Source: Minisyncoccia bacterium (GTDB lineage Bacteria > Patescibacteriota > Minisyncoccia > Phycocordibacterales > Phycocordibacteraceae). From it: a stretch of DNA of 41,103 bases. Both the position numbers and the translations under genes were made by a program. Position 1 is the first letter of the stretch; each line of letters opens with the position of its first letter. Under the pieces are notes generated by a model. It searched no databases. It was not told the DNA's origin and saw only the letters and a program-made list of their open reading frames with translations. Shown in pieces: positions 425 to 32,317 of this stretch. The stretch lies in NCBI GenBank assembly GCA_038912545.1, contig JBCLFD010000003.1:1-41103 (forward strand), read 5' to 3'.

Positions 425-3400
425 ATGAAAATATTTAAAGGGGTCGCGCTTATAGTGGCTGTTACTCTCTTTGTACAGCCGGTTTTTGCTTTGGCTACGA
501 CAGACTTGGGAGGAGTAGCCAAAAGTCCTAGTCGTTCTGCTTATGTGCCAGGCGAGGTTATCGTGAAATTCAAAGAGAGTCGCGTGGACCTCAAAAATGC
601 ATCCGGGATTGCCAAGTCGTCTCAATTTGCAGTGCGCCAGAATCTATTGGTAAAAGAGAATATCCGCCGCGCTAATCTCACTGTTCTCAAAACGAAGGGA
701 GAAGAAACTGTCGAAAGCGCTATCGCACGTCTGAAAAAAGATGCCGACGTTTTGTATGCCGAGCCAAACTATAGACGTTATCCATCAGGTATTACCACAA
801 ACGATACCAGTAGAGGTCTGTTATGGGGCCTAAATAACACCGGACAAACTGTCGGCGGAACATACACGACTAATAATCCTGGTTCAGTGGATAAAGATAT
901 AGATGCGCCAGAGGCTTGGGCGATAAGTGAGGCGACGACTTCTGCTCAAGTTATAGTGGCAGTTATAGATAGCGGCGTTGCTTATAACCATCCAGATTTA
1001 GCCGCGAATATGTGGGATGGAACGAACTGTAAAGATGATACAGGTGCTCTATTGGGAGGTTGTAATCATGGTTATGATTATGAAGATGGTGACAACATAC
1101 CATTACCAACTACAGACTCTCATGGGACCCATGTCGCTGGAACAATAGCTGCGGTAAAAAATAATAGCAAAGGCATTATTGGTGTCGCGCCACAGGCAAA
1201 GATAATGGCCATAAAATTTGGACTTGATATTGTTTCAGAAGTTAAAGCAATTGATTTCGCTATTCAAAATGGTGCCAAAGTAATTAATGCGAGTTTTGGA
1301 GGAGTTGATTTCTCCCAATCAGAATATGACGCAATCAACCGCTTTAAAACTGCCGGAGGAATTTTAGTTGCTTCAGCTGGTAATGGTGGTGATGATCAGA
1401 TTGGTGACAATAACGATGTTACACCACAGTATCCCGCTAATTATAATTTAGATAACATTATAAGCGTTGCCGCTACTGACCAGAATGACAGTTTGGCTAC
1501 TTTTTCAAACTATGGAACAACCTCTGTTGATGTCGGCGCACCTGGAACAAATATTTACAGCACAGTTGCTGATACGAATGCCATATTTAGTGATGGTTCA
1601 GATGAAAAATATGAATATTATTCAGGAACTTCAATGGCGGCACCTCATGTTGCTGGACTCGCGGCTTTAATACAGGGGTACAATCCAAACCTTACAGTCG
1701 CGCAGGTGAAAAATGCGATTCTAAACACCGGTGATACAGTGTCTTCTTTGGCCACTACAACTACAGGCAAAAGAATTAATGCTCAAAAAGCACTTCACGC
1801 TGTCAATCCAGCTAAGGACATTGTGGCTTTCAGTTTCCCAGCAGGTGTCGGTGTTATTACCGGGACTAACATTGCCGTGACCGTTCCTTTCGGCACTGCC
1901 GTGACTGCTCTTGTCCCAACTATCACACTTAGCGGTGGAACAGTCAGTCCTAATACAGGTGTAGCTCAAAACTTCACTGCGCCAGTCACATACACCGTCA
2001 CAGCTGCTGACGCTTCAACCAAAGCTTATACAATAACCGTGAACGTTGCGTTGCCGGTGGCTTCCTCTGTCGTAAGTCAGACACCGATTAATGGTGCACT
2101 GAATGTCGCGACCACATCTGCTATCACCGTCGTATTTGACCGTGCAATAACGGCAAGCTCAACAAACATCAGTTTCTCTCCTTTGATTTCTTTTTCAATA
2201 TCAACCACAACAAACACACTCACCATCACGCCATCCTCCTCTCTCGCTCTAAACACTACTTATACGCTCACGCTTGCCGGCATCAGCGATGGTAGCGGGA
2301 ACGTTCTTTCTTCTACGTCAAAATTCACGACAACGAATACATACTCAATACAGTTGTATAACAATGCAACGAGCGGTTTGAATTTAATTTCGATTCCAGT
2401 GGTCCCGACTAACACGGCCATTGCGAACGTTCTAGGATCGGCATCAAGTGCTATCGACTCTGTATGGTCCTACGATCCGGGTAATCCATCTGCCGATCCT
2501 TCTGGCTGGTTGGTCTACCGTCCGACAGAGCCGACATTATCGAGCCTAACTAGCATGACTTCTGGATATGCATATTGGATCAAAGTGCACACTGCAGCTA
2601 CATTGTCTGGCACTGGGTCGCTCTATACTCCAGGAGCAACGGCACCTCCATCTCGTACACTTCAGTCCGGTTGGAATCTCCTCGGTTACTACCAACTGCC
2701 TGGTGAGGCAAGTTCAACGCCGACAAAGGCACTTACGACACTCTCGAACTACACATCTGTCGTGGGCTACGACAATGCAACCGGAGCGTTTAAGGGAGTT
2801 TCTGATATTCAACCCGGAGAAGGTTTGTGGATTGGGCTACCATCAGCAGGTCAGTCTTACTATCCATCGTATTCCGCCAGTGCAGGAAGCGGTGAAGGCA
2901 CATTCAATCCACCTGAGGTTCCCGGTACTGTCTCAGTGACAAAATCGGCCAGTTCGCCATCTTCAAATGTGGCGGTAGGCGCGACTAATGTGAAGTGGGC
3001 AACCTTTGATCTGGTCGCATCGGGAGAAGATATGAAAATCGAAACCCTTAATATTCGAGCGGTTACTTCTCGTAGTGGCGGTCTCGATAACGGTAAAGTG
3101 TTCCTCAACGGCGTGCAAGTGAGTTCCACTAATGACCTCACCGATGCTACCGATGTGAACTTCACATTCGGTTCGTCTATGATTCTGAAGGATGGCATAA
3201 CCGCAATCGTTGACATCTACGCTGATGCTAAGACGACCACCGGTGCTGCGTTCAGTAACGGTGATAGTGCATACATCAGAATATCGGCGGGGTCCGCGAA
3301 TGGTGAGGGTGTGGCTACTGGCGGCATCATCAATGTTCCTGACGCGGATGTAATCGGAAATACGATTACAATGTCAGCATCCTCTCTGACAGCCGCCAAG

Positions 3401-3913
3401 GCTTCTTCCTATAGCAATCAGACAATGGTCGCAGGAACGTCTAACGCGAAGATGGGCTCCTTCACACTTTCAGTCGGTTCTATAGAAGGAGTGAATGTGA
3501 ACACCATCACCATTACGCTCTCTGGAGATGAGGCAGCGACCATTACAGACCTCATGCTGAAGGACAACGCGACGGGTGCGCAGATAGGCACGACAAAGGC
3601 ATCACCGGGCACGAGCAATTCGTTCTCGGTTAACCTTAATGTCGACGCTTCAGCGACTCAAGTCATTGATGTCTACGCGAACATTAAGTCCGCTGCTAAT
3701 AACGGAATATGGACCGCGACCATTGACGCATCGGCAACCGGTTCGGCAACCGGAAGCGCCGTCGCTGCAAGCGCGGTTGATCTCCAGACCATCACCTTGA
3801 GCACCGCAATACTCACCGCGACGGTCAACACTGGGAAGCCAGGCACTCGCGCTCTCGTCTGGTACACATACACACGCGACGTCGACCTTCACAGTCCCCC
3901 TTACGGTGGGTAA
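425..3913 (+). CDS. Secreted subtilisin-like serine protease (peptidase S8) with a long beta-repeat C-terminal region
   Basis: Signal peptide MKIFKGVALIVAVTLFVQPVFA and I9-like propeptide (VPGEVIVKFKE). Subtilase triad motifs are VAVIDSGV (Asp), HGTHVAGT (His) and GTSMAAPHVAG (Ser). About 700 aa of Thr/Ser/Ala-rich, Ig-like repetitive sequence follows. Confidence 0.9.
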   Translation: MKIFKGVALIVAVTLFVQPVFALATTDLGGVAKSPSRSAYVPGEVIVKFKESRVDLKNASGIAKSSQFAVRQNLLVKENIRRANLTVLKTKGEETVESAIARLKKDADVLYAEPNYRRYPSGITTNDTSRGLLWGLNNTGQTVGGTYTTNNPGSVDKDIDAPEAWAISEATTSAQVIVAVIDSGVAYNHPDLAANMWDGTNCKDDTGALLGGCNHGYDYEDGDNIPLPTTDSHGTHVAGTIAAVKNNSKGIIGVAPQAKIMAIKFGLDIVSEVKAIDFAIQNGAKVINASFGGVDFSQSEYDAINRFKTAGGILVASAGNGGDDQIGDNNDVTPQYPANYNLDNIISVAATDQNDSLATFSNYGTTSVDVGAPGTNIYSTVADTNAIFSDGSDEKYEYYSGTSMAAPHVAGLAALIQGYNPNLTVAQVKNAILNTGDTVSSLATTTTGKRINAQKALHAVNPAKDIVAFSFPAGVGVITGTNIAVTVPFGTAVTALVPTITLSGGTVSPNTGVAQNFTAPVTYTVTAADASTKAYTITVNVALPVASSVVSQTPINGALNVATTSAITVVFDRAITASSTNISFSPLISFSISTTTNTLTITPSSSLALNTTYTLTLAGISDGSGNVLSSTSKFTTTNTYSIQLYNNATSGLNLISIPVVPTNTAIANVLGSASSAIDSVWSYDPGNPSADPSGWLVYRPTEPTLSSLTSMTSGYAYWIKVHTAATLSGTGSLYTPGATAPPSRTLQSGWNLLGYYQLPGEASSTPTKALTTLSNYTSVVGYDNATGAFKGVSDIQPGEGLWIGLPSAGQSYYPSYSASAGSGEGTFNPPEVPGTVSVTKSASSPSSNVAVGATNVKWATFDLVASGEDMKIETLNIRAVTSRSGGLDNGKVFLNGVQVSSTNDLTDATDVNFTFGSSMILKDGITAIVDIYADAKTTTGAAFSNGDSAYIRISAGSANGEGVATGGIINVPDADVIGNTITMSASSLTAAKASSYSNQTMVAGTSNAKMGSFTLSVGSIEGVNVNTITITLSGDEAATITDLMLKDNATGAQIGTTKASPGTSNSFSVNLNVDASATQVIDVYANIKSAANNGIWTATIDASATGSATGSAVAASAVDLQTITLSTAILTATVNTGKPGTRALVWYTYTRDVDLHSPPYGG

Positions 3914-3936: not shown

Positions 3937-5145
3937 ATGAGTTTATTCAGAGCAACGCTTCGTTGGATGACTATAGGGGTCATCGCGTTTACTGCGATTC
4001 CGGTCTTCGCCGCTCCTGGTATACCCGAGCAGTTCTACGGCACGGTATCGTATGCGTCAGGCGCAACGCCGTCAGGTCTCGTTGTAGCAGCCTATGTGGG
4101 TAGTACGATGGTCGCGTCCTCAACAACGGATGGAAGCGGTAATTACGGTGTAGCACCTAATTTGCTCATGGTGCAGGATATTAACGGAACGCTTTCAGGA
4201 ACCACGATTACCTTCAAGGTTGATGGAGTGGCTGTGTCGCAAACAGCCACATTTGTAAATGCTATCCTCACCAAATTAGATATTGCCGTTGCTGGAACTG
4301 CGCCCGGCACGATGAATGACACAACCAATGAGGTGGCGATAACTTCTCCAACTCGAGCCGTTGTAGTTACTGTTCCAAGCGGTACAACAAACGCCACCGT
4401 TAATTTCGGCGCACTTATCACGGGCGGCACTGGAACAATTCCGCAAACAACTATTAATACCGCGAGTGCTGATATCGCCATCCCGGCATCTACCGTGGTA
4501 ACAAGCGAGGATACTACCTGGAACGGAATAATGAAGGTACCGACAGTTACAACGGTGGTGCTCCCTGTCACATCAGGTCAGACAAAGACATTTAGCTCAG
4601 CAATTGAAGTCGGTTTTTCTGGTGCAAAACTTTCGTTCAATAAAGGTGTCAAGATATTGTTATCTGATCAGGCCGGGAAGAGAGCTGGATATATCCGAAC
4701 AGGAATTGCTTTTACTGAAATAACAGCTGTTTGCGCGGCGAACAATCAATCAACGGGTGATGCTCTTGCCACAGACGCTGAATGTAAAATAGATTCTGGA
4801 TCTGATCTGGTTATCTGGACGAAGCACTTCACAACATTTGCCACCTATACACAGACAGCAACTCCAGCCACGACGAGCTCTGGTGGTTCGTCTGGTGGCT
4901 CTTCAGGCGGGTCCATTGCGGTCATTACACCAGTTACTACGCAAACGATAACTGCACCATCAACGCTCACGGCTCTTCAAAAGAAAATAGATGGGAACAA
5001 TGACGGCAAGGTAGACTTTCTCGACTTCAACTCTCTCATGGTGCACTGGGGAGAGAAAGTGTCGGGAATTACCTACGACTTCAACGGTGATGGGGCTGTG
5101 GATTTCTTTGATTTCAACTTATTAATGGTTAACTGGACTATATGA
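3937..5145 (+). CDS. Secreted protein with a C-terminal dockerin-type repeat pair
   Basis: N-terminal signal peptide (MTIGVIAFTAIPVFA) and a GGSSGGSSGGS linker. The last ~55 aa carry two Ca-binding dockerin-like repeats, DGNNDGKVDFLDFNSLMVHW and DFNGDGAVDFFDFNLLMVNW. Confidence 0.7.
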   Translation: MSLFRATLRWMTIGVIAFTAIPVFAAPGIPEQFYGTVSYASGATPSGLVVAAYVGSTMVASSTTDGSGNYGVAPNLLMVQDINGTLSGTTITFKVDGVAVSQTATFVNAILTKLDIAVAGTAPGTMNDTTNEVAITSPTRAVVVTVPSGTTNATVNFGALITGGTGTIPQTTINTASADIAIPASTVVTSEDTTWNGIMKVPTVTTVVLPVTSGQTKTFSSAIEVGFSGAKLSFNKGVKILLSDQAGKRAGYIRTGIAFTEITAVCAANNQSTGDALATDAECKIDSGSDLVIWTKHFTTFATYTQTATPATTSSGGSSGGSSGGSIAVITPVTTQTITAPSTLTALQKKIDGNNDGKVDFLDFNSLMVHWGEKVSGITYDFNGDGAVDFFDFNLLMVNWTI

Positions 5146-5882
5146 ACACTTACTCACGTGCTCTTGTTGTGCTCGGACTGATTGTACTCGCCGTTCCAAT
5201 CAGTGCACTTGCGGCAAGTATTTCGCTTTCCCCTACGACTGTATCCGTTCAATCTGGAGACACTTTCACTGTTGCGGTAACTGCAGATCCAGCATCCACA
5301 AAAATCTACAGCGTACGTGCGAACATCGCCTTTGATTCTTCGGTCCTACAGGTCTCTAACTTCTCATTTGCGAGCACTTGGATGCCAGTATCACAGCCCG
5401 GCTACGATACTACTGACAATGCTAGCGGAGTCCTCATCAAGACCGGTGGCTATCCAGGAGGCATTACGTCATCGACTCGACTCGGTACGATCTCATTCAA
5501 GGCTATAAAGACAGGAACAGTGACGATTAGCGCGACTGGAAGCTCTTTGCTTCTTGATGCTTCAAGCGCAAACCAGCTTTCTGGTGGGCAAGGTAGTGTC
5601 GCAGTATCGGTAACCGCACCTGCTCCTAAGCCGACTTCCGTATCAATCACTCCAACACCAAAGCCGAAAGCAGTTGCTACAAAGCCAACTCCTACTAAGG
5701 ATAGTGTTTCAACGACCACTGCGACTTCCACAGAGAAGGTGGAGTCGAGCTCCTTGCTGGCGGCCGTGAATGGCGCGATTACTTTCGGCACCGGCAGTCC
5801 TATTGTGTCCGCGCTACTCTCGGCAGTTATCGTTCTTCTGTTAGTGTTCGGCTTCTACTACACTCGAAAGCTTGGCGACTAA
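5142..5882 (+). CDS. Cohesin-like domain protein with Pro/Thr linker and C-terminal membrane anchor
   Basis: Signal peptide, then a cohesin-like pattern (SVQSGDTFTVAVTADP..ANIAFDSSVLQVSNF..LGTISFKAIKTGTVTI). A PT-rich linker (PAPKPTSVSITPTPKPK) and a terminal TM helix IVSALLSAVIVLLLVFGFYY follow. The start overlaps the upstream stop by 4 nt. Confidence 0.55.
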   Translation: MNTYSRALVVLGLIVLAVPISALAASISLSPTTVSVQSGDTFTVAVTADPASTKIYSVRANIAFDSSVLQVSNFSFASTWMPVSQPGYDTTDNASGVLIKTGGYPGGITSSTRLGTISFKAIKTGTVTISATGSSLLLDASSANQLSGGQGSVAVSVTAPAPKPTSVSITPTPKPKAVATKPTPTKDSVSTTTATSTEKVESSSLLAAVNGAITFGTGSPIVSALLSAVIVLLLVFGFYYTRKLGD

Positions 5883-8089: not shown

Positions 8090-8116
8090 GGGGAAAGTGG
8101 CAGGGCGATGTTAGGC

Positions 8117-8140
8117 AATACCTCAACGCGTTGAGGTATT
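8117..8140. repeat. Perfect 24-nt palindrome
   Basis: AATACCTCAACGCGTTGAGGTATT is its own reverse complement. Confidence 0.9.
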
Positions 8141-8181
8141 CATGATTTTGTGGGAAAGAGAAGGGGGTCACCCCTTCCTTA

Positions 8182-8216
8182 GGGGGCGGGGTGGATTTTA
8201 TAAAAAGGGTCCCATC
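8182..8216 (+). repeat. 35-nt G-box/AT-palindrome box, copy 1
   Basis: GGGGGCGGGGTGGATTTTATAAAAAGGGTCCCATC is 33/35 identical to 12935-12969, in the same orientation. Confidence 0.9.
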
Positions 8217-8241
8217 TGCGCTATACTGGAGGAATCACCAC

Positions 8242-8266
8242 AAATGTAGGGAATCCGGTGACGGAA
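8242..8266 (+). repeat. AATGTAGGG..GGTGA block, copy 1
   Basis: AAATGTAGGGAATCCGGTGACGGAA. Related blocks lie at 17639-17672 and 20137-20166. Confidence 0.6.
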
Positions 8267-8311
8267 TATTATAATGACAAAATTCATAACAAACAGCGGG
8301 GAAACTGAAAC

Positions 8312-8327
8312 AATGGTGGCTGTCCCC
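8312..8327. repeat. Singlet R half-site of the 16-nt family (copy C)
   Basis: AATGGTGGCTGTCCCC is 16/16 and lies 31 nt upstream of the helicase ATG. Confidence 0.9.
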
Positions 8328-8357
8328 TTTATCGTAAATAATTGATAAAAAAATATA

Positions 8358-17602: not shown

Positions 17603-17618
17603 AGGGACAGCCACCATT
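17603..17618. repeat. Singlet L half-site (copy G)
   Basis: aGGGACAGCCACCATT, 15/16. Confidence 0.85.
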
Positions 17619-17638
17619 TTCTGATTGCATCGCCCGAT

Positions 17639-17672
17639 AAATGTAGGGATTAATGTGGTGATTGCGAAGGAG
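17639..17672 (+). repeat. AATGTAGGG..GGTGATTGCG block, copy 2
   Basis: AAATGTAGGGATTAATGTGGTGATTGCGAAGGAG, compared with 20137-20166 CAATGTAGGGCAACGGTGATTGCGGAAGAG. Confidence 0.7.
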
Positions 17673-17686
17673 CTATAATTAATCGC

Positions 17687-18046
17687 ATGGCAAAGAAATA
17701 CGGATTTTCGGAGAATGAACTGGCGTCGGTAATGCCGAGAGATATGGAATGCGTCTACTGTGGTGAGAAAATGCTGTACCCGTATGATCTAGCTAATCGA
17801 AAAAAGTCAGCGACCTTAGAACACCTGAATCACATAAGGCCATTTTATAAGCAGTATGGCTTGCTATTATCTGGCTTAACGTATTGTTGCGGCAGTTGCA
17901 ATTCAAGTCGGGGAAAGAAGTCACTATTTGAATGGTTCGCGAAACCATACTGTAGTCCTGAAAGAAATAACATCAATCGTGCGACCGTTGCTGAGCCTGT
18001 TCGCAAATATATTGAGAGACGGATAGCAGAAGGTGCTGAGTGGTGA
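17687..18046 (+). CDS. HNH endonuclease-family protein
   Basis: CVYCGEKM..ATLEHLNHI..CCGSCNSSRG gives the Cys pairs and H-N-type core of HNH nucleases. TATAAT lies 7 nt upstream of the ATG. Confidence 0.7.
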   Translation: MAKKYGFSENELASVMPRDMECVYCGEKMLYPYDLANRKKSATLEHLNHIRPFYKQYGLLLSGLTYCCGSCNSSRGKKSLFEWFAKPYCSPERNNINRATVAEPVRKYIERRIAEGAEW

Positions 18047-18047
18047 G

Positions 18048-18371
18048 CTATTTGATATCTTCCGGCAAGCGGTCGGCGGCTTTACGCTTTGAGTAAGTCT
18101 CTGACTCTGGACAGCGGTTGATGATATTGCCCATGTGCCAGTAGGTATGGCCGGCGTAGTCGAAATAGGTCTGCACCGTGTCGTAAAACTCGGACTTGTA
18201 GCCGTTGATGTCGATATATTTGGAGAGGGCTGAGAATAGCTCTCCTTTGACCTGCTCCTCAATGATGTATTCGTGAGGCCATGTGGTTGCATAGGTTTTA
18301 GCGAATATCCATTTCTGGTTCGCGATGAATTGCTTCAATTTGTCGGGTAGCTCGAGCATTAAGCCCATCAT
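18048..18371 (-). CDS. Hypothetical protein (107 aa)
   Basis: A clean ORF convergent with the HNH gene, with a 1-nt gap. It contains a WPHEYII segment, but I cannot place the family. Confidence 0.45.
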   Translation of the reverse strand: MMGLMLELPDKLKQFIANQKWIFAKTYATTWPHEYIIEEQVKGELFSALSKYIDINGYKSEFYDTVQTYFDYAGHTYWHMGNIINRCPESETYSKRKAADRLPEDIK

Positions 18372-18418
18372 ACCTAATTTGGACTTGATGGGGCGAGCGA
18401 AAGGAGTACAGTTGGGCT

Positions 18419-18847
18419 ATGAGATTGAGTGATTTGGAAAAAGATTTAAAACAAGTAATCGACAAACCCGGTATATACCGCATTTTTTGGAAAGACGGAG
18501 AAATGCCGGAGTTTAGAACTGACATTTGTGGTGGCACGAGGAATGATCCGGTTTCGGAAGAAAAACTCAAAAACAAATGGATAAAAGGAAAAAATCTTAT
18601 TTATATTGGTCAGACAAAAAGAACTCTGAGAAAGAGAATTTACGAATTGGTAGGATACGGAATGAATCTTACGAATAACCACCGTGGAGGGCGCTATATG
18701 TGGCAAATAAAGAATATCTGGGAACATGCAACGATTGAGTTGGAGAAATGTGAGAAGTGCGAGAATCCGAAAGCAGAAGAAAAGAAGCTACTGGCGGATT
18801 TCAAGAAAAAATATGGAAAACTACCATTTGCCAATTTAATAGGATAA
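18419..18847 (+). CDS. Stand-alone GIY-YIG nuclease-domain protein 3
   Basis: KPGIYRIFW (GIY), then NLIYIGQTKRTLRKRIYEL (YIG and Arg), HRGGRY, EEKKLL and a terminal FAN. AAGGAG Shine-Dalgarno upstream. Confidence 0.65.
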   Translation: MRLSDLEKDLKQVIDKPGIYRIFWKDGEMPEFRTDICGGTRNDPVSEEKLKNKWIKGKNLIYIGQTKRTLRKRIYELVGYGMNLTNNHRGGRYMWQIKNIWEHATIELEKCEKCENPKAEEKKLLADFKKKYGKLPFANLIG

Positions 18848-18859
18848 TCGCACTACCTC

Positions 18860-19291
18860 ATGATTGAATTTGATGGACACTCTTATTTCGATGACAGACT
18901 CTACGTTTCTTATCTATGTAAAGGAACCGTGCGGATTGACCCGGACGACGGCGTTGCCACTACAACCATTTACCATGAACAGACACCTGCAGACCACATA
19001 TGGTGCGTAGTTACTCACAGAAACTGTAATCGGTACCCCATCTTCAGCATAGATAGTTTCTATAAGAAAGACAGTGCAATGTCGTATTTAAAGATAATAG
19101 AGCCAAAGACACCTTTGATTAGTCTCAATGGTAATTCACCCCACCATCCAAAAACCTATGAAGAGTATTCAGCGTGGAAAGAATCAAATAATTTGAAGGA
19201 CTATGATTATCGCTCAATTTTTACTCTCGGGGGAATAGATCCGAGAGAGATGATAATGCAAACGAAGGAGCAGTTTGATGGAATCAGATAA
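18860..19291 (+). CDS. Hypothetical protein (143 aa)
   Basis: ORF in an operon-like series, overlapping the next gene by 17 nt. No motif recognised. Confidence 0.4.
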   Translation: MIEFDGHSYFDDRLYVSYLCKGTVRIDPDDGVATTTIYHEQTPADHIWCVVTHRNCNRYPIFSIDSFYKKDSAMSYLKIIEPKTPLISLNGNSPHHPKTYEEYSAWKESNNLKDYDYRSIFTLGGIDPREMIMQTKEQFDGIR

Positions 19292-20144
19292 TACTCATGA
19301 TTCTATGAAAAGCGTCTTTATCAGCACTTCTTCGTTTGTTATTTTTATAGCGGGTTTGTATTACCTGCTGAATTTTCAACTGATTTATGCGGTTGGCTTC
19401 GGAGTTTTGTTGCTCATTCATGAGTTGGGGCATGTTTTTGCCTTAAATAAAATGGAAGGCACAATAAAAGGCGTCTATTTCTTTCCTTTTGTTGGTGCAA
19501 TTGTAACTAGTGATAAGAAGCTAAAAACTGAAAATGAATACGCTTATGTTAAATACATGGGTCCTCTCGTCGGCACACTTGGGGTTCTGGCAACGCTTTT
19601 CATTTTCTTTCTTCTAGATGACCAAAGATTTCTGCATTTAGTTTTTGTGGGGGCAATATTAAATCTGATAAACATGGTCCCGATAACATTTCTCGATGGA
19701 TACGGCGTGTTACGTGGGTCTATTAAGAATGTTGAATGGTTAGGATTCCTGATTGTCGTTATCATCGGAGCCTTTATCTTTCATCAATATATATTCACGC
19801 TCTTACTGCTCGTGATTTTTACTCTTTTTTCGGAGGTTCCGAACAAAGAGGGAACCGGCTTTCAGGTTCACGAGGTAGTGCTGACCAGCATTTTTATCCT
19901 GGCAATGATCATCCTATCGTGGGCAGATAAAGATAATTTGGTGCTAAATATTCCGCTCGTTGCTCTCTCTGTATACGTGTTTGTCGCCTATATAAGAACA
20001 ACAAAATTCAACCCGCAGAAGGTTCCTGTCATTCTTAAACTAACGCCGCTTACCAGCAGAGAGAAAGTCCTGTGGCCCGTAAGGTGGGTAGCTCTATCCC
20101 TTTTTCTGATTGTTACTGCAGTCTATTCGGCTCCGCCAATGTAG
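19275..20144 (+). CDS. Polytopic membrane metalloprotease, M50 (site-2 protease) family
   Basis: HELGH zinc motif inside a TM segment (LLLIHELGHVFAL) and a second S2P motif NLINMVPITFLDG. Several hydrophobic helices. Confidence 0.65.
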   Translation: MMESDNTHDSMKSVFISTSSFVIFIAGLYYLLNFQLIYAVGFGVLLLIHELGHVFALNKMEGTIKGVYFFPFVGAIVTSDKKLKTENEYAYVKYMGPLVGTLGVLATLFIFFLLDDQRFLHLVFVGAILNLINMVPITFLDGYGVLRGSIKNVEWLGFLIVVIIGAFIFHQYIFTLLLLVIFTLFSEVPNKEGTGFQVHEVVLTSIFILAMIILSWADKDNLVLNIPLVALSVYVFVAYIRTTKFNPQKVPVILKLTPLTSREKVLWPVRWVALSLFLIVTAVYSAPPM

Positions 20145-20166
20145 GGCAACGGTGATTGCGGAAGAG
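20137..20166 (+). repeat. AATGTAGGG..GGTGATTGCG block, copy 3
   Basis: Overlaps the M50 stop codon. See 17639-17672. Confidence 0.7.
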
Positions 20167-20180
20167 TTCTAGGGTGGAAA

Positions 20181-20229
20181 TGGGGACCCTCCTTCGCATG
20201 AAGCTACGGAAGGACAAAGCAGCCACCAT
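20181..20229. repeat. L half-site split by a 33-nt hairpin-forming insert (copy H)
   Basis: The flank GGTGGAAAT (as in copies A and B) precedes GGGGAC. The insert is CCTCCTTCGCATGAAGCTACGGAAGGACAAAGC. AGCCACCATT follows it. Confidence 0.7.
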
Positions 20230-20360: not shown

Positions 20361-20406
20361 TTCGAATCCTACACGGAAGCGTTCTTACGCTTCCTCCGCG
20401 GAGCAG
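20361..20406 (+). repeat. Inverted partial copy of the tRNA-Asn 3' end, split by a 23-nt hairpin
   Basis: TTCGAATCCTAC (20361-20372) and CCGCGGAGCAG (20396-20406) equal the sense sequence of the tRNA from T-loop through acceptor 3' strand to trailer (reverse complement of 20443-20465). Here they sit on the opposite strand. The separator is ACGGAAGCGTTCTTACGCTTCCT. Confidence 0.75.
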
Positions 20407-20412
20407 TAACGC

Positions 20413-20436
20413 AAAAATCGCCCGAAGGCGATTTTG
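20413..20436 (-). terminator. Rho-independent terminator downstream of tRNA-Asn
   Basis: The minus strand reads AAAATCGCC-TTCG-GGCGATTTTT, a 9-bp stem with a UUCG loop and a U run. Confidence 0.6.
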
Positions 20437-20445
20437 CTTGTTCTG

Positions 20446-20750
20446 CTCCGCGGGTAGGATTCGAACCTACGACCAACTCCTTACATCGTGTCCACTATTA
20501 CTAGTGGGATGGACTATATCATCACCCGTATTTACTTTCGTAAATCGAGGGTGCGAGGCGCTTCGACCTTTCGGCCTACTCCCTTGCGGGATAGTCTCTA
20601 CACCTTCAACAAGATTTCTCTTGAAGCTTGGCTCGGGATTGCCCACGCTTTCGCGTTTGGGTTTCCCCGAGTTCACCTCGTTTTTCAACCGAAGTTACCT
20701 TCGGAAGCTGCCTTCGACAGGGAGCCGCTCTACCACTGAGCTACCGCGGA
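20446..20750 (-). tRNA. tRNA-Asn(GUU) interrupted by a group I intron
   Basis: Exon 1 is 20750-20717 and exon 2 is 20483-20446. Joined, they read UCCGCGG UA GCUC AGUGGUA GAGC G GCUCC CUGUUAA GGAGU UGGUC GUAGG UUCGAAU CCUAC CCGCGGA G. This is a full cloverleaf with anticodon GUU, a U1-A72 pair and discriminator G73, as in E. coli tRNA-Asn. CCA is not encoded. Confidence 0.85.
20484..20716 (-). ncRNA. Group I intron (IC3-like, tRNA type), 233 nt, no ORF
   Basis: - The 5' exon ends in U, which pairs as U.G in a P1 helix (CUGU^C / GGCAG).
- The intron ends in G (..CACGAUG^UAA).
- The core stretch CCCGAGCCAAGCUUC..GAAGGUGUAGAGACUA closely resembles the Azoarcus/Anabaena tRNA intron core, from memory.
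- There are many GNRA-capped hairpins: CCGAAG-GUAA-CUUCGG, CGCGAAAGCG, UCCC-GCAA-GGGA, GGCC-GAAA-GGUC, AUUUAC-GAAA-GUAAAU and CCACUA-GUAA-UAGUGG. Confidence 0.8.
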
Positions 20751-20781: not shown

Positions 20782-20809
20782 ATTCTAGCTGAAAAACCAA
20801 GTATCGCAA
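20782..20809 (-). promoter_or_regulatory. Candidate sigma70-type promoter for the tRNA-Asn gene
   Basis: The minus strand has TTGCGA, a 16-nt spacer and TAGAAT, about 30 nt upstream of the mature tRNA 5' end. Confidence 0.4.
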
Positions 20810-26021: not shown

Positions 26022-27047
26022 ATGTCATTTTTCTCACCGAAGCTCGGTATTGATTTAGGGACGACGAATGTGCTCGTTTTTGTCCCCGGTAAAGGCATCG
26101 TTATCAACGAGCCATCGGTCGTGACGGTGAGTAAAGAGAAGGGAGGCAGGGGAGGAAGTAAAATTCTCGCAATCGGGACCGAGGCGAAGCAGATGATTGG
26201 ACGCACTCCCGACGACATCGTCACGTATCGCCCGCTGAAGGATGGCGTCATTGCGGATTATCGTGTGACCGAGGCGATGCTTCGTTATTTTATGAAGAAG
26301 GCGCTCGGACGGAATCCTTTCAAGCCGACCGTACTCATTTCTGTCCCTGCCGGCGTGACCTCTACTGAGAAGCGTGCGGTCATAGAAGCGGCGATGAAGG
26401 CGGGCGCGAAGAACGCGTATGTGGTGAAGGAACCGATTCTCGCTGCTATCGGTGCGGGCATCCCGATACACGAGCCGATGGGACGCATAATTGTGGACAT
26501 CGGCGGTGGGACGATTGACGTCGCGGTGATCTCGCTCGGTGGTATCGTCGCCTCAACCTCGGTGAAGTGCGCGGGCGACCGGCTGGACCGCGCTATCGTT
26601 GACCATGTGAAGAAACAGCACAATCTCGCCATCGGTGAAAAGAGCGCGGAGGAATTGAAGATTAAAATCGGCGCTGCCGTCCCGATGCAGGAGGAGCTCA
26701 CGATGCCGGTGAAAGGACGTGATCTTATCTCGGGCCTCCCGCGCACGGTTGATCTTTCAACAAATGAACTCGTGCAGGCGATGTCGCGCGAGCTCCGCGA
26801 GATGACGCAGGCGATACGCAAGGTGCTCCAAGAGACCCCGCCGGAGCTCGCTGCCGACATCATTGATAACGGCATCATCCTCACGGGCGGTTCGTCCCAG
26901 CTCCGGCAAATGCCCGAGCTCGTCTTCCGTCGCACTGGGGTAATAGCGAAGCTTGCGCAGGACCCATATTATTGCGTCGCGCGCGGGACCGGCATCGCGT
27001 TGAAGCATTTGAATATGTATCAGAAGAGCATTTTGGCGAAGCGGTAA
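26022..27047 (+). CDS. mreB: Rod shape-determining actin homologue MreB (paralogue 1)
   Basis: GIDLGTTNVLVFVPGKGIVINEPSVV, DIGGGTIDVAVISLGGIV, LTGGSSQL. Confidence 0.9.
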   Translation: MSFFSPKLGIDLGTTNVLVFVPGKGIVINEPSVVTVSKEKGGRGGSKILAIGTEAKQMIGRTPDDIVTYRPLKDGVIADYRVTEAMLRYFMKKALGRNPFKPTVLISVPAGVTSTEKRAVIEAAMKAGAKNAYVVKEPILAAIGAGIPIHEPMGRIIVDIGGGTIDVAVISLGGIVASTSVKCAGDRLDRAIVDHVKKQHNLAIGEKSAEELKIKIGAAVPMQEELTMPVKGRDLISGLPRTVDLSTNELVQAMSRELREMTQAIRKVLQETPPELAADIIDNGIILTGGSSQLRQMPELVFRRTGVIAKLAQDPYYCVARGTGIALKHLNMYQKSILAKR

Positions 27048-31264: not shown

Positions 31265-32317
31265 ATGCCACGGTTCTCAAAAAATTCTTTTTTCTCAAGT
31301 GATATTGCGATTGATCTCGGGACTACGAATACGCTCGTCTATGTGCGCGGGCGCGGAGTGGTCATTAACGAACCCTCGGTTGTCGCGGTCAACGATAAAA
31401 CGAATCAGGTGGTCGCGGTGGGGCACTCCGCCAAAGCGATGCTTGGCAAAACGCCCCCACATATCCGCACCGTGCGTCCGCTCTCGCACGGCGTCATATC
31501 CGACTTTGAAGTGACAGAGGAGTTGCTGACCTATCTCATTAACAAAGCACAAGGCGGTCGTACACGGCTATTTGGTCCGCGCGTGGTCATCGGCGTGCCG
31601 ACCGGAGTGACGAACGTGCAGAGTCGTGCGGTGCGCGACGCAGCGAAGAATGCTGGATCACGCGAGGTGATTATTTTGGAAGAGCCGGTCGCAGGAGCCA
31701 TTGGTGCGAAATTGCCAGTGAATGAGGCCGTCGGCACGATGGTGCTGGACATCGGCGGAGGCACAACCGATATTGCGGTCATCTCGCTCTCGGGCATCGT
31801 CGCCGCAAAGAGTTCGCACGTCGCCGGCGATCGTTTTAATGAGAACATTATTGACTTCGTACGAAGCGAGTTCAAGCTCGGCATCGGCGAACGTACTGCA
31901 GAAGATGTGAAGATATATATCGGGGCGGTGACGCCACTCTCCGAGACCTTGTCGCGCAGTGTGCGCGGGCGCGACCTTGCAACGGGGCTCCCGCGCGAAA
32001 TTACAGTATCGGATGCGCACATTCGCGAAGCACTCGCTCCGTCTCTTGATGCGCTGATGGAAACGATGAAAGAGGTGATTGAAGCGACTCCGCCCGAACT
32101 TCTTTCTGATGTGCTTGAACGCGGCGTGACCGTGTTCGGCGGAGGCGCGCTTCTGCGGGGCCTGCCGCAAGTCCTCGCGAAGATGCTCGGCGTGCCGGTG
32201 CGGGTGGCTCCCGACCCATTGACTGCGGTCGTGCGCGGTGCCGGCATCGTGACGGAAGATCCGGACACGTATCAAGATTTTTTCATCAATGAAGAGGACT
32301 TATTTAGCGAAGCGTAA
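31265..32317 (+). CDS. mreB: Rod shape-determining actin homologue MreB (paralogue 2)
   Basis: IAIDLGTTNTLVYVRGRGVVINEPSVVAV, DIGGGTTDIAVISLSGIV. Followed by mreC and mreD. Confidence 0.9.
   Translation: MPRFSKNSFFSSDIAIDLGTTNTLVYVRGRGVVINEPSVVAVNDKTNQVVAVGHSAKAMLGKTPPHIRTVRPLSHGVISDFEVTEELLTYLINKAQGGRTRLFGPRVVIGVPTGVTNVQSRAVRDAAKNAGSREVIILEEPVAGAIGAKLPVNEAVGTMVLDIGGGTTDIAVISLSGIVAAKSSHVAGDRFNENIIDFVRSEFKLGIGERTAEDVKIYIGAVTPLSETLSRSVRGRDLATGLPREITVSDAHIREALAPSLDALMETMKEVIEATPPELLSDVLERGVTVFGGGALLRGLPQVLAKMLGVPVRVAPDPLTAVVRGAGIVTEDPDTYQDFFINEEDLFSEA

Follow-up and report, generated by a model that had tools for sequence, protein, structure and literature searches.

A tRNA-Asn(GUU) gene of a Parcubacteria-type bacterium split within the anticodon by a compact group I intron

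The window analyzed here is a 41,103-nt stretch of DNA from a Minisyncoccia bacterium (contig JBCLFD010000003.1 of the assembly GCA_038912545.1, positions 1 to 41,103). Its minus strand carries a tRNA-Asn(GUU) gene whose two halves are separated, between the anticodon bases U35 and U36, by a group I intron without an open reading frame (ORF) of its own. The evidence presented below gives us considerable confidence that this is a functional tRNA gene of a Parcubacteria-type member of the candidate phyla radiation (CPR), and the fold and conservation of the intron suggest that the gene very probably works through self-splicing.

The split gene and its intron

Exon 1 contains the 5' strand of the acceptor stem, the D arm, the 5' strand of the anticodon stem, and the loop bases C32, U33, G34, and U35. 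It is 100% identical to the respective exon of the closest relative found, L259 (GCA_038912145.1), which has a 95% identical MreB protein and carries the same split tRNA-Asn gene. Exon 2 supplies U36, A37, and A38, the 3' strand of the anticodon stem, the variable loop, the T arm, the 3' strand of the acceptor stem, and the discriminator G73; the CCA end is not encoded. ARAGORN recognizes the joined exons as tRNA-Asn(gtt), folds them into a regular cloverleaf, and gives the anticodon loop as CUGUUAA. The product shows the marks of a bacterial tRNA-Asn, namely the cloverleaf, the anticodon GUU, G73, and the U1-A72 pair, and its best annotated matches are tRNA-Asn genes, with 81-83% identity to Escherichia coli records and 76% full-length identity to those of cyanophages. 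In the native 41-kb window, ARAGORN calls no tRNA. Its intron mode offers a tRNA-Ile(aat) with a 218-nt intron, a candidate that we rejected, as it has the acceptor, D, and T arms right but the anticodon arm misplaced. A promoter candidate precedes the tRNA 5' end by approximately 31 nt, and a terminator candidate is found on the other side of the gene (Table 1).

The intron begins with CGAAGGCAG (DNA CGAAGGCAGC) and ends with GAUG (DNA CACGATG). It gives a match to the Rfam family RF00028 (Intron_gpI) at positions 20730-20491 of the minus strand, which scores 70.3 bits (gathering score 50; E = 5.4e-16), spans model positions 1-253 of 253, and is the sole Rfam match in the window. The folding energy of the intron is -85.4 kcal/mol (z = -5.7 relative to dinucleotide shuffles), and the entire conserved core from P3 to P9, including the P3/P7 pseudoknot, can be drawn. 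The core stretch GAGCCAAGCUUC..GAAGGUGUAGAGACUA is present, P10 amounts to at most 1 bp, and seven helices are capped by GNRA loops (GUAA in L2 and L9, GCAA in L7.1, and GAAA in L5a, L6a, L7.2, and L8). The sense strand of the intron holds a lone 73-amino-acid (aa) frame with a TTG start, which crosses the conserved core into exon 2 and appears purely mechanical; it would break in the homologous intron of L065, which is 235 nt long versus 233 nt in the window.

These data bear out most of a preliminary description of the locus. It had placed two tRNA halves 233 nt apart on the minus strand, with coordinates and splice points that are right, and had joined them at U35^U36 into the complete cloverleaf that ARAGORN now confirms. 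It had also reported an unencoded CCA end (exon 2 indeed stops at the discriminator), a P1 helix with a U.G pair at the 5' splice site (CUGU does pair with GCAG), a terminal G, and a run of GNRA-capped helices together with the core stretch given above, all of which are seen. Its assignment of the intron to group I agrees with the full-length RF00028 match and the foldable P3-P8 core. The statement that the intron contains no ORF was essentially correct, given the mechanical nature of the 73-aa frame and the absence from the window of the HNH homologue described below.

Table 1. Features of the split tRNA-Asn gene and its surroundings. Intron positions are numbered 1-233 (window coordinate = 20717 minus position). 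Pairing percentages refer to cells of the 35-intron alignment A1.
Feature	Coordinates	Strand	Composition	Basis or support
Exon 1 of tRNA-Asn(GUU)	20750-20717	minus	34 nt, TCCGCGGTAGCTCAGTGGTAGAGCGGCTCCCTGT, ends CUGU	ARAGORN on joined exons
Group I intron	20716-20484	minus	233 nt, ORF-less	RF00028 match; covariation in alignment A1
Exon 2 of tRNA-Asn(GUU)	20483-20446	minus	38 nt, TAAGGAGTTGGTCGTAGGTTCGAATCCTACCCGCGGAG, starts UAAGGAG	ARAGORN on joined exons
P1			Exon C32 U33 G34 U35 with G9 A8 C7 G6; wobble U35.G6 at the 5' splice site	Read from sequence
Internal guide sequence	20708..20711	minus	G6 C7 A8 G9, 3' strand of P1	Read from sequence
P2 hairpin	20689..20704	minus	13-18 with 23-28, loop GUAA	96% of cells paired; 6/6 pairs change on both sides
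P3, 5' strand	20674..20680	minus	37-43, partner 20554-20560; 7 bp	98% paired; 4 compensatory pairs
P3, 3' strand	20554..20560	minus	157-163	Covariation, same helix as the 5' strand
P4, J4/5, P5, P5a	20633..20670	minus	P4, 47-52 with 79-84; P5, 56-58 with 73-75; P5a, 62-64 with 69-71, loop GAAA	P4 99% and P5 97% paired, compensatory changes
P6 and P6a	20602..20632	minus	P6, 85-87 with 113-115; P6a, 94-98 with 103-107, loop GAAA	P6 without variation; P6a, 5/5 pairs change on both sides
P7, 5' strand	20592..20598	minus	G119, bulged A120, 121-125; pairs with 20511-20516 (201-206); guanosine-binding helix	6 bp, invariant in 35 introns
P7.1 and P7.2	20565..20591	minus	Extra hairpins between P7 and P3'; P7.1, 126-129 with 134-137, loop GCAA; P7.2, 141-144 with 149-152, loop GAAA	P7.1 99% paired; P7.2 89% paired, 4/4 pairs change on both sides
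P8	20525..20551	minus	166-168 with 190-192; 172-177 with 182-187, loop GAAA	Outer helix 91% paired, compensatory changes; inner helix length-variable, lowering the MAFFT register
J8/7 and P7, 3' strand	20511..20524	minus	J8/7, UGAUGAUA; P7 3' strand, UAGUCC	ATGATATAGTCC invariant in 35/35 introns; agrees with RF00028 consensus AAGAUAUAGUC
P9 hairpin	20492..20507	minus	210-215 with 220-225, loop GUAA	86% paired; 5/6 pairs change on both sides
Terminal guanosine (omega G)	20484	minus	G233	Read from sequence; column invariant in A1
Promoter candidate, sigma-70-like	20782..20809	minus	TTGCGA, 16-nt spacer, TAGAAT	Consensus scan, 9/12 matches; consensus match alone
Terminator candidate	20414..20435		Hairpin AAAATCGCC-(4 nt)-GGCGATTTT, then T-run	Scan and sequence inspection
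Inverted partial copy of tRNA-Asn 3' end	20361..20406	plus	TTCGAATCCTAC, hairpin GGAAGCG-TTCTTA-CGCTTCC, CCGCGGAGCAG	
Low-G+C block	8100..20200		31-43% G+C vs ~50% elsewhere	Adjoins tRNA 3' end

Other split tRNA genes

Relatives of the intron were collected in two scans. The broad scan, for the P6-P7 motif in one genome per species, returned at least 120 loci from many phyla. All pairs of U-ending 5' and G-ending 3' splice sites were enumerated at each locus, and ARAGORN was asked which joined product is a tRNA; the ambiguity of this enumeration was resolved by length and anticodon filters and stricter ARAGORN thresholds. The counts given here and below are those among the matches listed. Approximately 60 loci are classical tRNA-Leu(UAA) genes split at 34/35. 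Other hosts include tRNA-Arg(CCU) and tRNA-Arg(UCU), both at 36/37, tRNAs with a CAU anticodon (33/34 or 36/37), tRNA-Phe(GAA) (33/34), and tRNA-Thr(GGU) (36/37). The tRNA-Asn(GUU) gene split at 35/36 is found at 5 loci, all of them in metagenome-assembled genomes (MAGs) of Patescibacteria: one each of Nomurabacteria, Parcubacteria, and Paceibacterota and two of Saccharibacteria. The split gene of L065 (Saccharibacteria) is 89% identical to that of the window over 315 nt.

The narrow signature, which adds the first extra hairpin to the motif, was found on at least 120 metagenome contigs and 14 contigs of a viral collection. Among the 142 regions listed, ~46 are tRNA-Asn genes with a short intron at 35/36 and ~35 are tRNA-Phe genes split at 33/34; in another 31 tRNA-Asn genes, the intron is 540-655 nt long. 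The short-intron tRNA-Asn genes comprise 44 unique ones (introns of 207-362 nt), in each of which GCAG faces CUGU and the intron ends in G; the guide GCAG is also invariant in all 35 aligned introns. Altogether, some 75 further split tRNA-Asn genes were found among the matches listed, and all of those that come from named genomes belong to Patescibacteria (CPR). The arrangement of an intron at 35/36 of tRNA-Asn is common in environmental CPR bacteria. In L256 and L257, whose MreB proteins are 88% identical to that of the window, no split tRNA-Asn gene was found within 21 kb of the same gene neighborhood.

In tRNA-Phe(GAA), introns of this subclass are inserted after U33. Such genes are represented by L039, L047, L063, L069, L087, and L111 and by the ~35 metagenome loci; their hosts are mostly CPR MAGs, with one MAG of Bdellovibrionales. 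The P6-P7 core motif is also seen at positions 1639-1673 of L049, a contig binned as Methanosarcinaceae archaeon. Similar archaeal matches are put down to mis-binning in a preprint by Williams (2020, bioRxiv, doi 10.1101/2020.01.27.920355).

Covariation in the intron and across it

For a test of the structure, 35 Asn introns were aligned with MAFFT (alignment A1), and the drawn helices were mapped onto the result. Standard pairs are formed in 92.9% of the cells, as opposed to 34-46% in controls with the 3' partners displaced by 1-3 columns, and the observed values are attained in 0 of 500 shuffles. Both sides change in 39 of the 62 pairs (368 cells), with compensatory changes seen in P2, P3, P4, P5, P6a, P7.1, P7.2, P8, and P9. 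P1 was left uncounted in this alignment because the exon CUGU, like the variable loops, is scattered over its columns, and P5a and the inner P8 helix score 68-69% paired, also for alignment reasons. The search pattern had fixed in advance the 5' strand of P7, the 3' strand of P6, and the outer part of P7.1; the 3' strand of P7 (UAGUCC), which lay outside the pattern, is likewise invariant in the 35 introns. At columns conserved in at least 90% of the family, the window intron has the consensus base in 103 of 104 cases, the lone exception being in the unpaired 3' tail.

The tRNA halves covary as well. In the 44 unique genes, the anticodon stem occurs in 15 sequence variants, each with 4-5 of 5 pairs formed although its two strands lie 207-362 nt apart; the acceptor stems covary, and neither the loop CUGUUAA nor the discriminator G varies. 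Since the exon halves covary across the intron, these comparisons point to selection acting on the ligated tRNA-Asn as the functional product throughout the family.

Place among known group I introns

The preprint by Williams (2020) describes a scan of 80,413 bacterial genomes that raised the number of interrupted tRNA types from the four classical ones (Leu.3Ug, Arg.5Ug, fMet.2Ug, and Ile2.5Ug) to 21. Its seed alignment includes a class Asn.4Ug with the entry Pam37.Asn.4Ug. Loop position 4 in this nomenclature corresponds to 35/36, a numbering that we checked on the paper's own example, Leu.3Ug, which is CUU/AAAA. The window intron has the features of this class, i.e., a tRNA-Asn host, insertion at 35/36, U at -1, and G at omega, and the presence of Pam37.Asn.4Ug in the seed alignment means that introns of this kind have already been catalogued. 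The preliminary description had named the same four classical hosts, tRNA-Leu(UAA), tRNA-fMet, tRNA-Ile(CAU), and tRNA-Arg(CCU), in agreement with Williams (2020). The novelty that it implied for tRNA-Asn and for the 35/36 site does not hold, in view of that class and of the ~75 additional genes among the matches listed.

Pam37.Asn.4Ug resembles the window intron in its host, site, U at -1, and terminal G, in the hairpins that separate P7 from P3' and the AGCGCC after them, and in J8/7 (AUGAGAUAGUCC). It differs in reading GCAGAGACUA-cggau where the window has GUAGAGACUA-UCCC and in its larger P2 region; these differences in sequence and in P2 place it in a different sub-lineage. The text of the preprint lists the class Asn.4Ug without a structural or comparative description, and our literature searches on group I introns of tRNA-Asn and of CPR bacteria found no other paper on this class. 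Lui et al. (2021; PMC8172020), working with complete genomes that are mainly of CPR bacteria, noted that some tRNAs were hard to detect owing to group I introns.

The preliminary description had likened the core to the P6/P7 region of the Azoarcus and cyanobacterial tRNA introns of subgroup IC3. This part of the comparison stands. The Azoarcus-type entry Aol6.Ile2.5Ug reads GCC-AAG-cuucggcg...gauG-AA-GGU-GUAGAGACUA, and the window intron is the same over GCC-AAG-CUUC and G-AA-GGU-GUAGAGACUA; P6 and J6/7-P7 are identical (GCCAAGCUUC...GAAGGUGUAGAGACUA), so an IC3-type core is present. The IC3 introns of Azoarcus tRNA-Ile(CAU) and cyanobacterial tRNA-Leu(UAA) are also small, ORF-less, and located in the anticodon loop of a bacterial tRNA, with a short P1 and GNRA loops on P2 and P9. 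However, their hosts and sites are different (Ile at 36/37 and Leu at 34/35), P3' and J8/7 differ (GAAGGCAUAGUCC versus GAUGAUAUAGUCC in the window), and they have no P7.1 or P7.2. In the minimal periphery typical of IC3, P7 leads straight to P3', whereas two covarying hairpins intervene in the window intron. The P7.1/P7.2 columns are empty in the Leu, Arg, fMet, and Ile2 entries of the Williams alignment and are filled in Pam37.Asn.4Ug, in the Phe.2Ug, Lys.2Ug, and Leu.1Ug entries, and in tmRNA introns. The two hairpins and the J8/7 sequence GAUGAUAUAGUCC are common to the window, phage, and tRNA-Phe introns but not to the Azoarcus entry. Hairpins P7.1 and P7.2 are a hallmark of subgroup IA. 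By its sequence and fold, the window intron is a combination of an IC3-like core with IA-like P7.1/P7.2 and not a plain IC3 intron of the Azoarcus type, a qualification of the earlier likening.

Two other groups of introns share this subclass signature. The tRNA-Phe(GAA) introns at 33/34 (Phe.2Ug) of CPR bacteria match in host group and approximate size and differ in host tRNA, insertion after U33, and guide sequence. The exact 24-base P6'-P7-P7.1 signature is found on the 14 contigs of the viral collection, and introns in protein genes of Alteromonas, Ralstonia, and Vibrio phages are ~70% identical to that of the window from P3 to P3'. These phage introns, too, are associated with HNH endonucleases, but they interrupt open reading frames rather than tRNAs, and their guide sequences fit other exons. 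In L244 (3242-5689), the intron splits the large subunit of ribonucleotide reductase at Pfam profile position ~211/221, and in L250 (1999-4599), two introns and an HNH-AP2 ORF follow an ORF with a phage-type RNA polymerase domain. Another contig of the viral collection, L253 (63-1777), carries two introns ~1.2 kb apart.

HNH endonuclease and intron mobility

The intron of L259 is identical to that of the window in its 3' two-thirds and has ~330 extra nt in the P1 loop. This insert encodes, at 3290-3604 of the minus strand, a 104-aa HNH endonuclease (PF01844, 22.4 bits versus a cutoff of 21.4), and the 3' end of its ORF overlaps the guide sequence and P2. Homologues occur in 52 loci; ~33 of them are full-length and reside in long Asn introns (e.g., in L148, L181, L149, and L021; 54-87% identity), whereas just a 26-aa HNH remnant is left in L147 and L179. 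About 40% of the split tRNA-Asn genes among the matches listed carry an HNH ORF in the P1 loop. In L029, L152, and L157, an extra hairpin of 30-50 nt occupies the site in the P1 loop that is taken by the HNH ORF elsewhere, and GCAG is found further downstream.

The window contains neither a homologue nor a remnant of the family HNH protein. Its absence here and its presence in L259 and ~30 other loci identify the window intron, at the level of sequence comparison, as the endonuclease-free form of a mobile element.

Genomic surroundings

The DNA of the window is chromosomal, with genes for Def, Fmt, AroA, MreC, two MreB paralogues, MraW, a penicillin-binding protein, and two class II aminoacyl-tRNA synthetases. 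Look-ups for proteins identical to PEBP, MreB, and Def of the window retrieved no records. The best named homologues of its MreB come from “Candidatus Kaiserbacteria” and Paceibacterota, which makes the host a Parcubacteria-type CPR bacterium. The MreB paralogues (26022-27047 and 31265-32317) lie within 5 kb, the second one being followed by MreC and a penicillin-binding-protein transpeptidase, and this two-MreB arrangement is kept in the relatives L255 and L256. Adjacent proteins with dockerin and cohesin domains are encoded at 3937-5882, beside a 1162-aa subtilase, in what is apparently a CPR genome.

The 3' end of the tRNA gene adjoins a low-G+C block that codes for a DEAD-box helicase protein, a GIY-YIG protein, two C5 DNA methyltransferases, and a restriction enzyme of the NgoFVII type. 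The window and L259 are homologous at the DNA level as far as window position 20441, 5 nt outside the 3' end of the tRNA gene. In L259, the place of the block is occupied by the gene for a large serine recombinase with Resolvase, Recombinase, and zinc-ribbon domains (1494-3053, plus strand), which overlaps the 3' end of tRNA-Asn by 12 nt. The proposal that the tRNA gene marks an island boundary, made in the preliminary description, gains support from this comparison: deviant composition coincides with a break of synteny at the tRNA 3' end, and the recombinase gene of L259 at the point where homology is lost indicates that variable DNA is joined on at this end in the lineage. No integrase or recombinase was found among the ORFs of the low-G+C block of the window, nor was a direct repeat of the tRNA 3' end found at its far border. 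Part of the tRNA-Asn 3' end is repeated in inverted orientation, tail-to-tail with the gene across the terminator hairpin, and both motifs of this copy are confined to it and the gene; the copy may have been left behind by site-specific recombination at tRNA-Asn.

Within the block, positions 13070-17220 hold a restriction-modification module in which the two C5 cytosine methyltransferases share repeated segments and which also includes the GIY-YIG protein and the NgoFVII-type enzyme (PLD and B3-like domains). A motif of ~20-27 nt, AATGGTGGCTGTCCCCTTT, is present between the genes of the block in six copies and in both orientations (at 8308, 12311 [inverted], 12337, 13049, 13867, and 17592 [inverted]), and a 43-nt repeat, GGGGGCGGGG..AAAAAGGGTCCCATC, is found at 8182 and 12935, each time upstream of a gene.

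Proposed function and alternatives

In the proposed mechanism, the gene would be transcribed as a precursor of ~305 nt in which the intron folds into its P1-P9 core. The guide GCAG and the exon CUGU would form P1, with the U35.G wobble at the splice site, and an external guanosine bound in P7 would attack after U35. G233 would then occupy the guanosine site, and the freed 3'-OH of U35 would attack the 3' splice site, joining U35 to U36 and restoring the loop CUGUUAA. Standard processing of the 5' and 3' ends and CCA addition would complete the tRNA.

Several points weigh against this scheme. P1 and P7 are invariant, and the covariation is therefore silent on both, either way; moreover, the 5' strand of P7, the 3' strand of P6, and the outer part of P7.1 were set by the search pattern. 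With a P10 of at most 1 bp, the exons would probably have to be aligned via the anticodon stem of the tRNA. Splicing of the Asn-class introns, that of the window included, is a prediction from sequence alone, and a second, intact tRNA-Asn gene may exist elsewhere in the genome.

The intron might be removed in the cell with the help of a protein cofactor, such as a maturase or an RNA chaperone, or splice inefficiently without one. Dependence on proteins in vivo is known for many group I introns, the P1 of this one has just 4 exon pairs and hardly any P10, and its relatives encode an HNH protein within the intron. Nevertheless, we consider such dependence very unlikely: the ORF-less window intron is conserved as well as the ORF-bearing forms, its seven GNRA loops suggest a self-stabilized fold, and small Azoarcus-type tRNA introns with the same core self-splice efficiently.

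A decayed locus, in which the intron invaded the gene and lost its activity while another, intact tRNA-Asn gene serves the cell, appears very unlikely. The window shows only 41 kb of the genome, which leaves room for a second tRNA-Asn gene, and the inverted tRNA-Asn 3'-end fragment next to the split gene testifies to a past rearrangement. However, all core helices are intact and all but one of the 104 conserved columns are at consensus, the exons give a perfect cloverleaf, promoter-like and terminator-like sites flank the gene, and covariation of the exon halves within the family would not be expected of decaying genes. The difficulty of detecting intron-bearing tRNAs reported by the authors of CPR genomes (PMC8172020) also speaks against a dead gene.

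An artefact of assembly or binning, or a tRNA-Thr(UGU) host split at 33/34, can be dismissed as extremely improbable: the same arrangement recurs in ~75 independent contigs that represent many samples, the body of the tRNA bears the marks of tRNA-Asn (U1-A72, G73) with tRNA-Asn genes as its nearest annotated relatives, and the Thr join, which ARAGORN offers as an alternative for many relatives with introns ending in ...GUG, is impossible in the window, where the base before UGUAA is A and not G.

A functional, probably self-splicing tRNA-Asn(GUU) gene thus remains the favored explanation, and it is compatible with a broader one, to which we give a little less than an even chance. The split gene would be the sole tRNA-Asn of a streamlined CPR genome, making asparagine decoding dependent on a ribozyme, and the intron lineage would move between CPR tRNA genes (Asn at 35/36 and Phe at 33/34) and phage genes (ribonucleotide reductase and RNA polymerase) by means of a P1-loop HNH endonuclease that is repeatedly gained and lost. 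Taken by itself, dependence on a sole tRNA-Asn is plausible for a small CPR genome.

The kind of intron described here is already known, and the locus, although itself a new example, raises no new question and would not surprise a specialist. A class known so far just from its listing in a preprint gains a well-supported member here, along with evidence at the level of the family: a covariation-supported fold with P7.1 and P7.2, ORF-bearing and ORF-less forms among close relatives, and occurrence of the subclass in phage genes. At 233 nt, the intron would be a convenient substrate for a splicing test of the Asn class. Standard tRNA finders miss the gene, as ARAGORN did, so that a genome of this type would falsely look devoid of tRNA-Asn and score as less complete.

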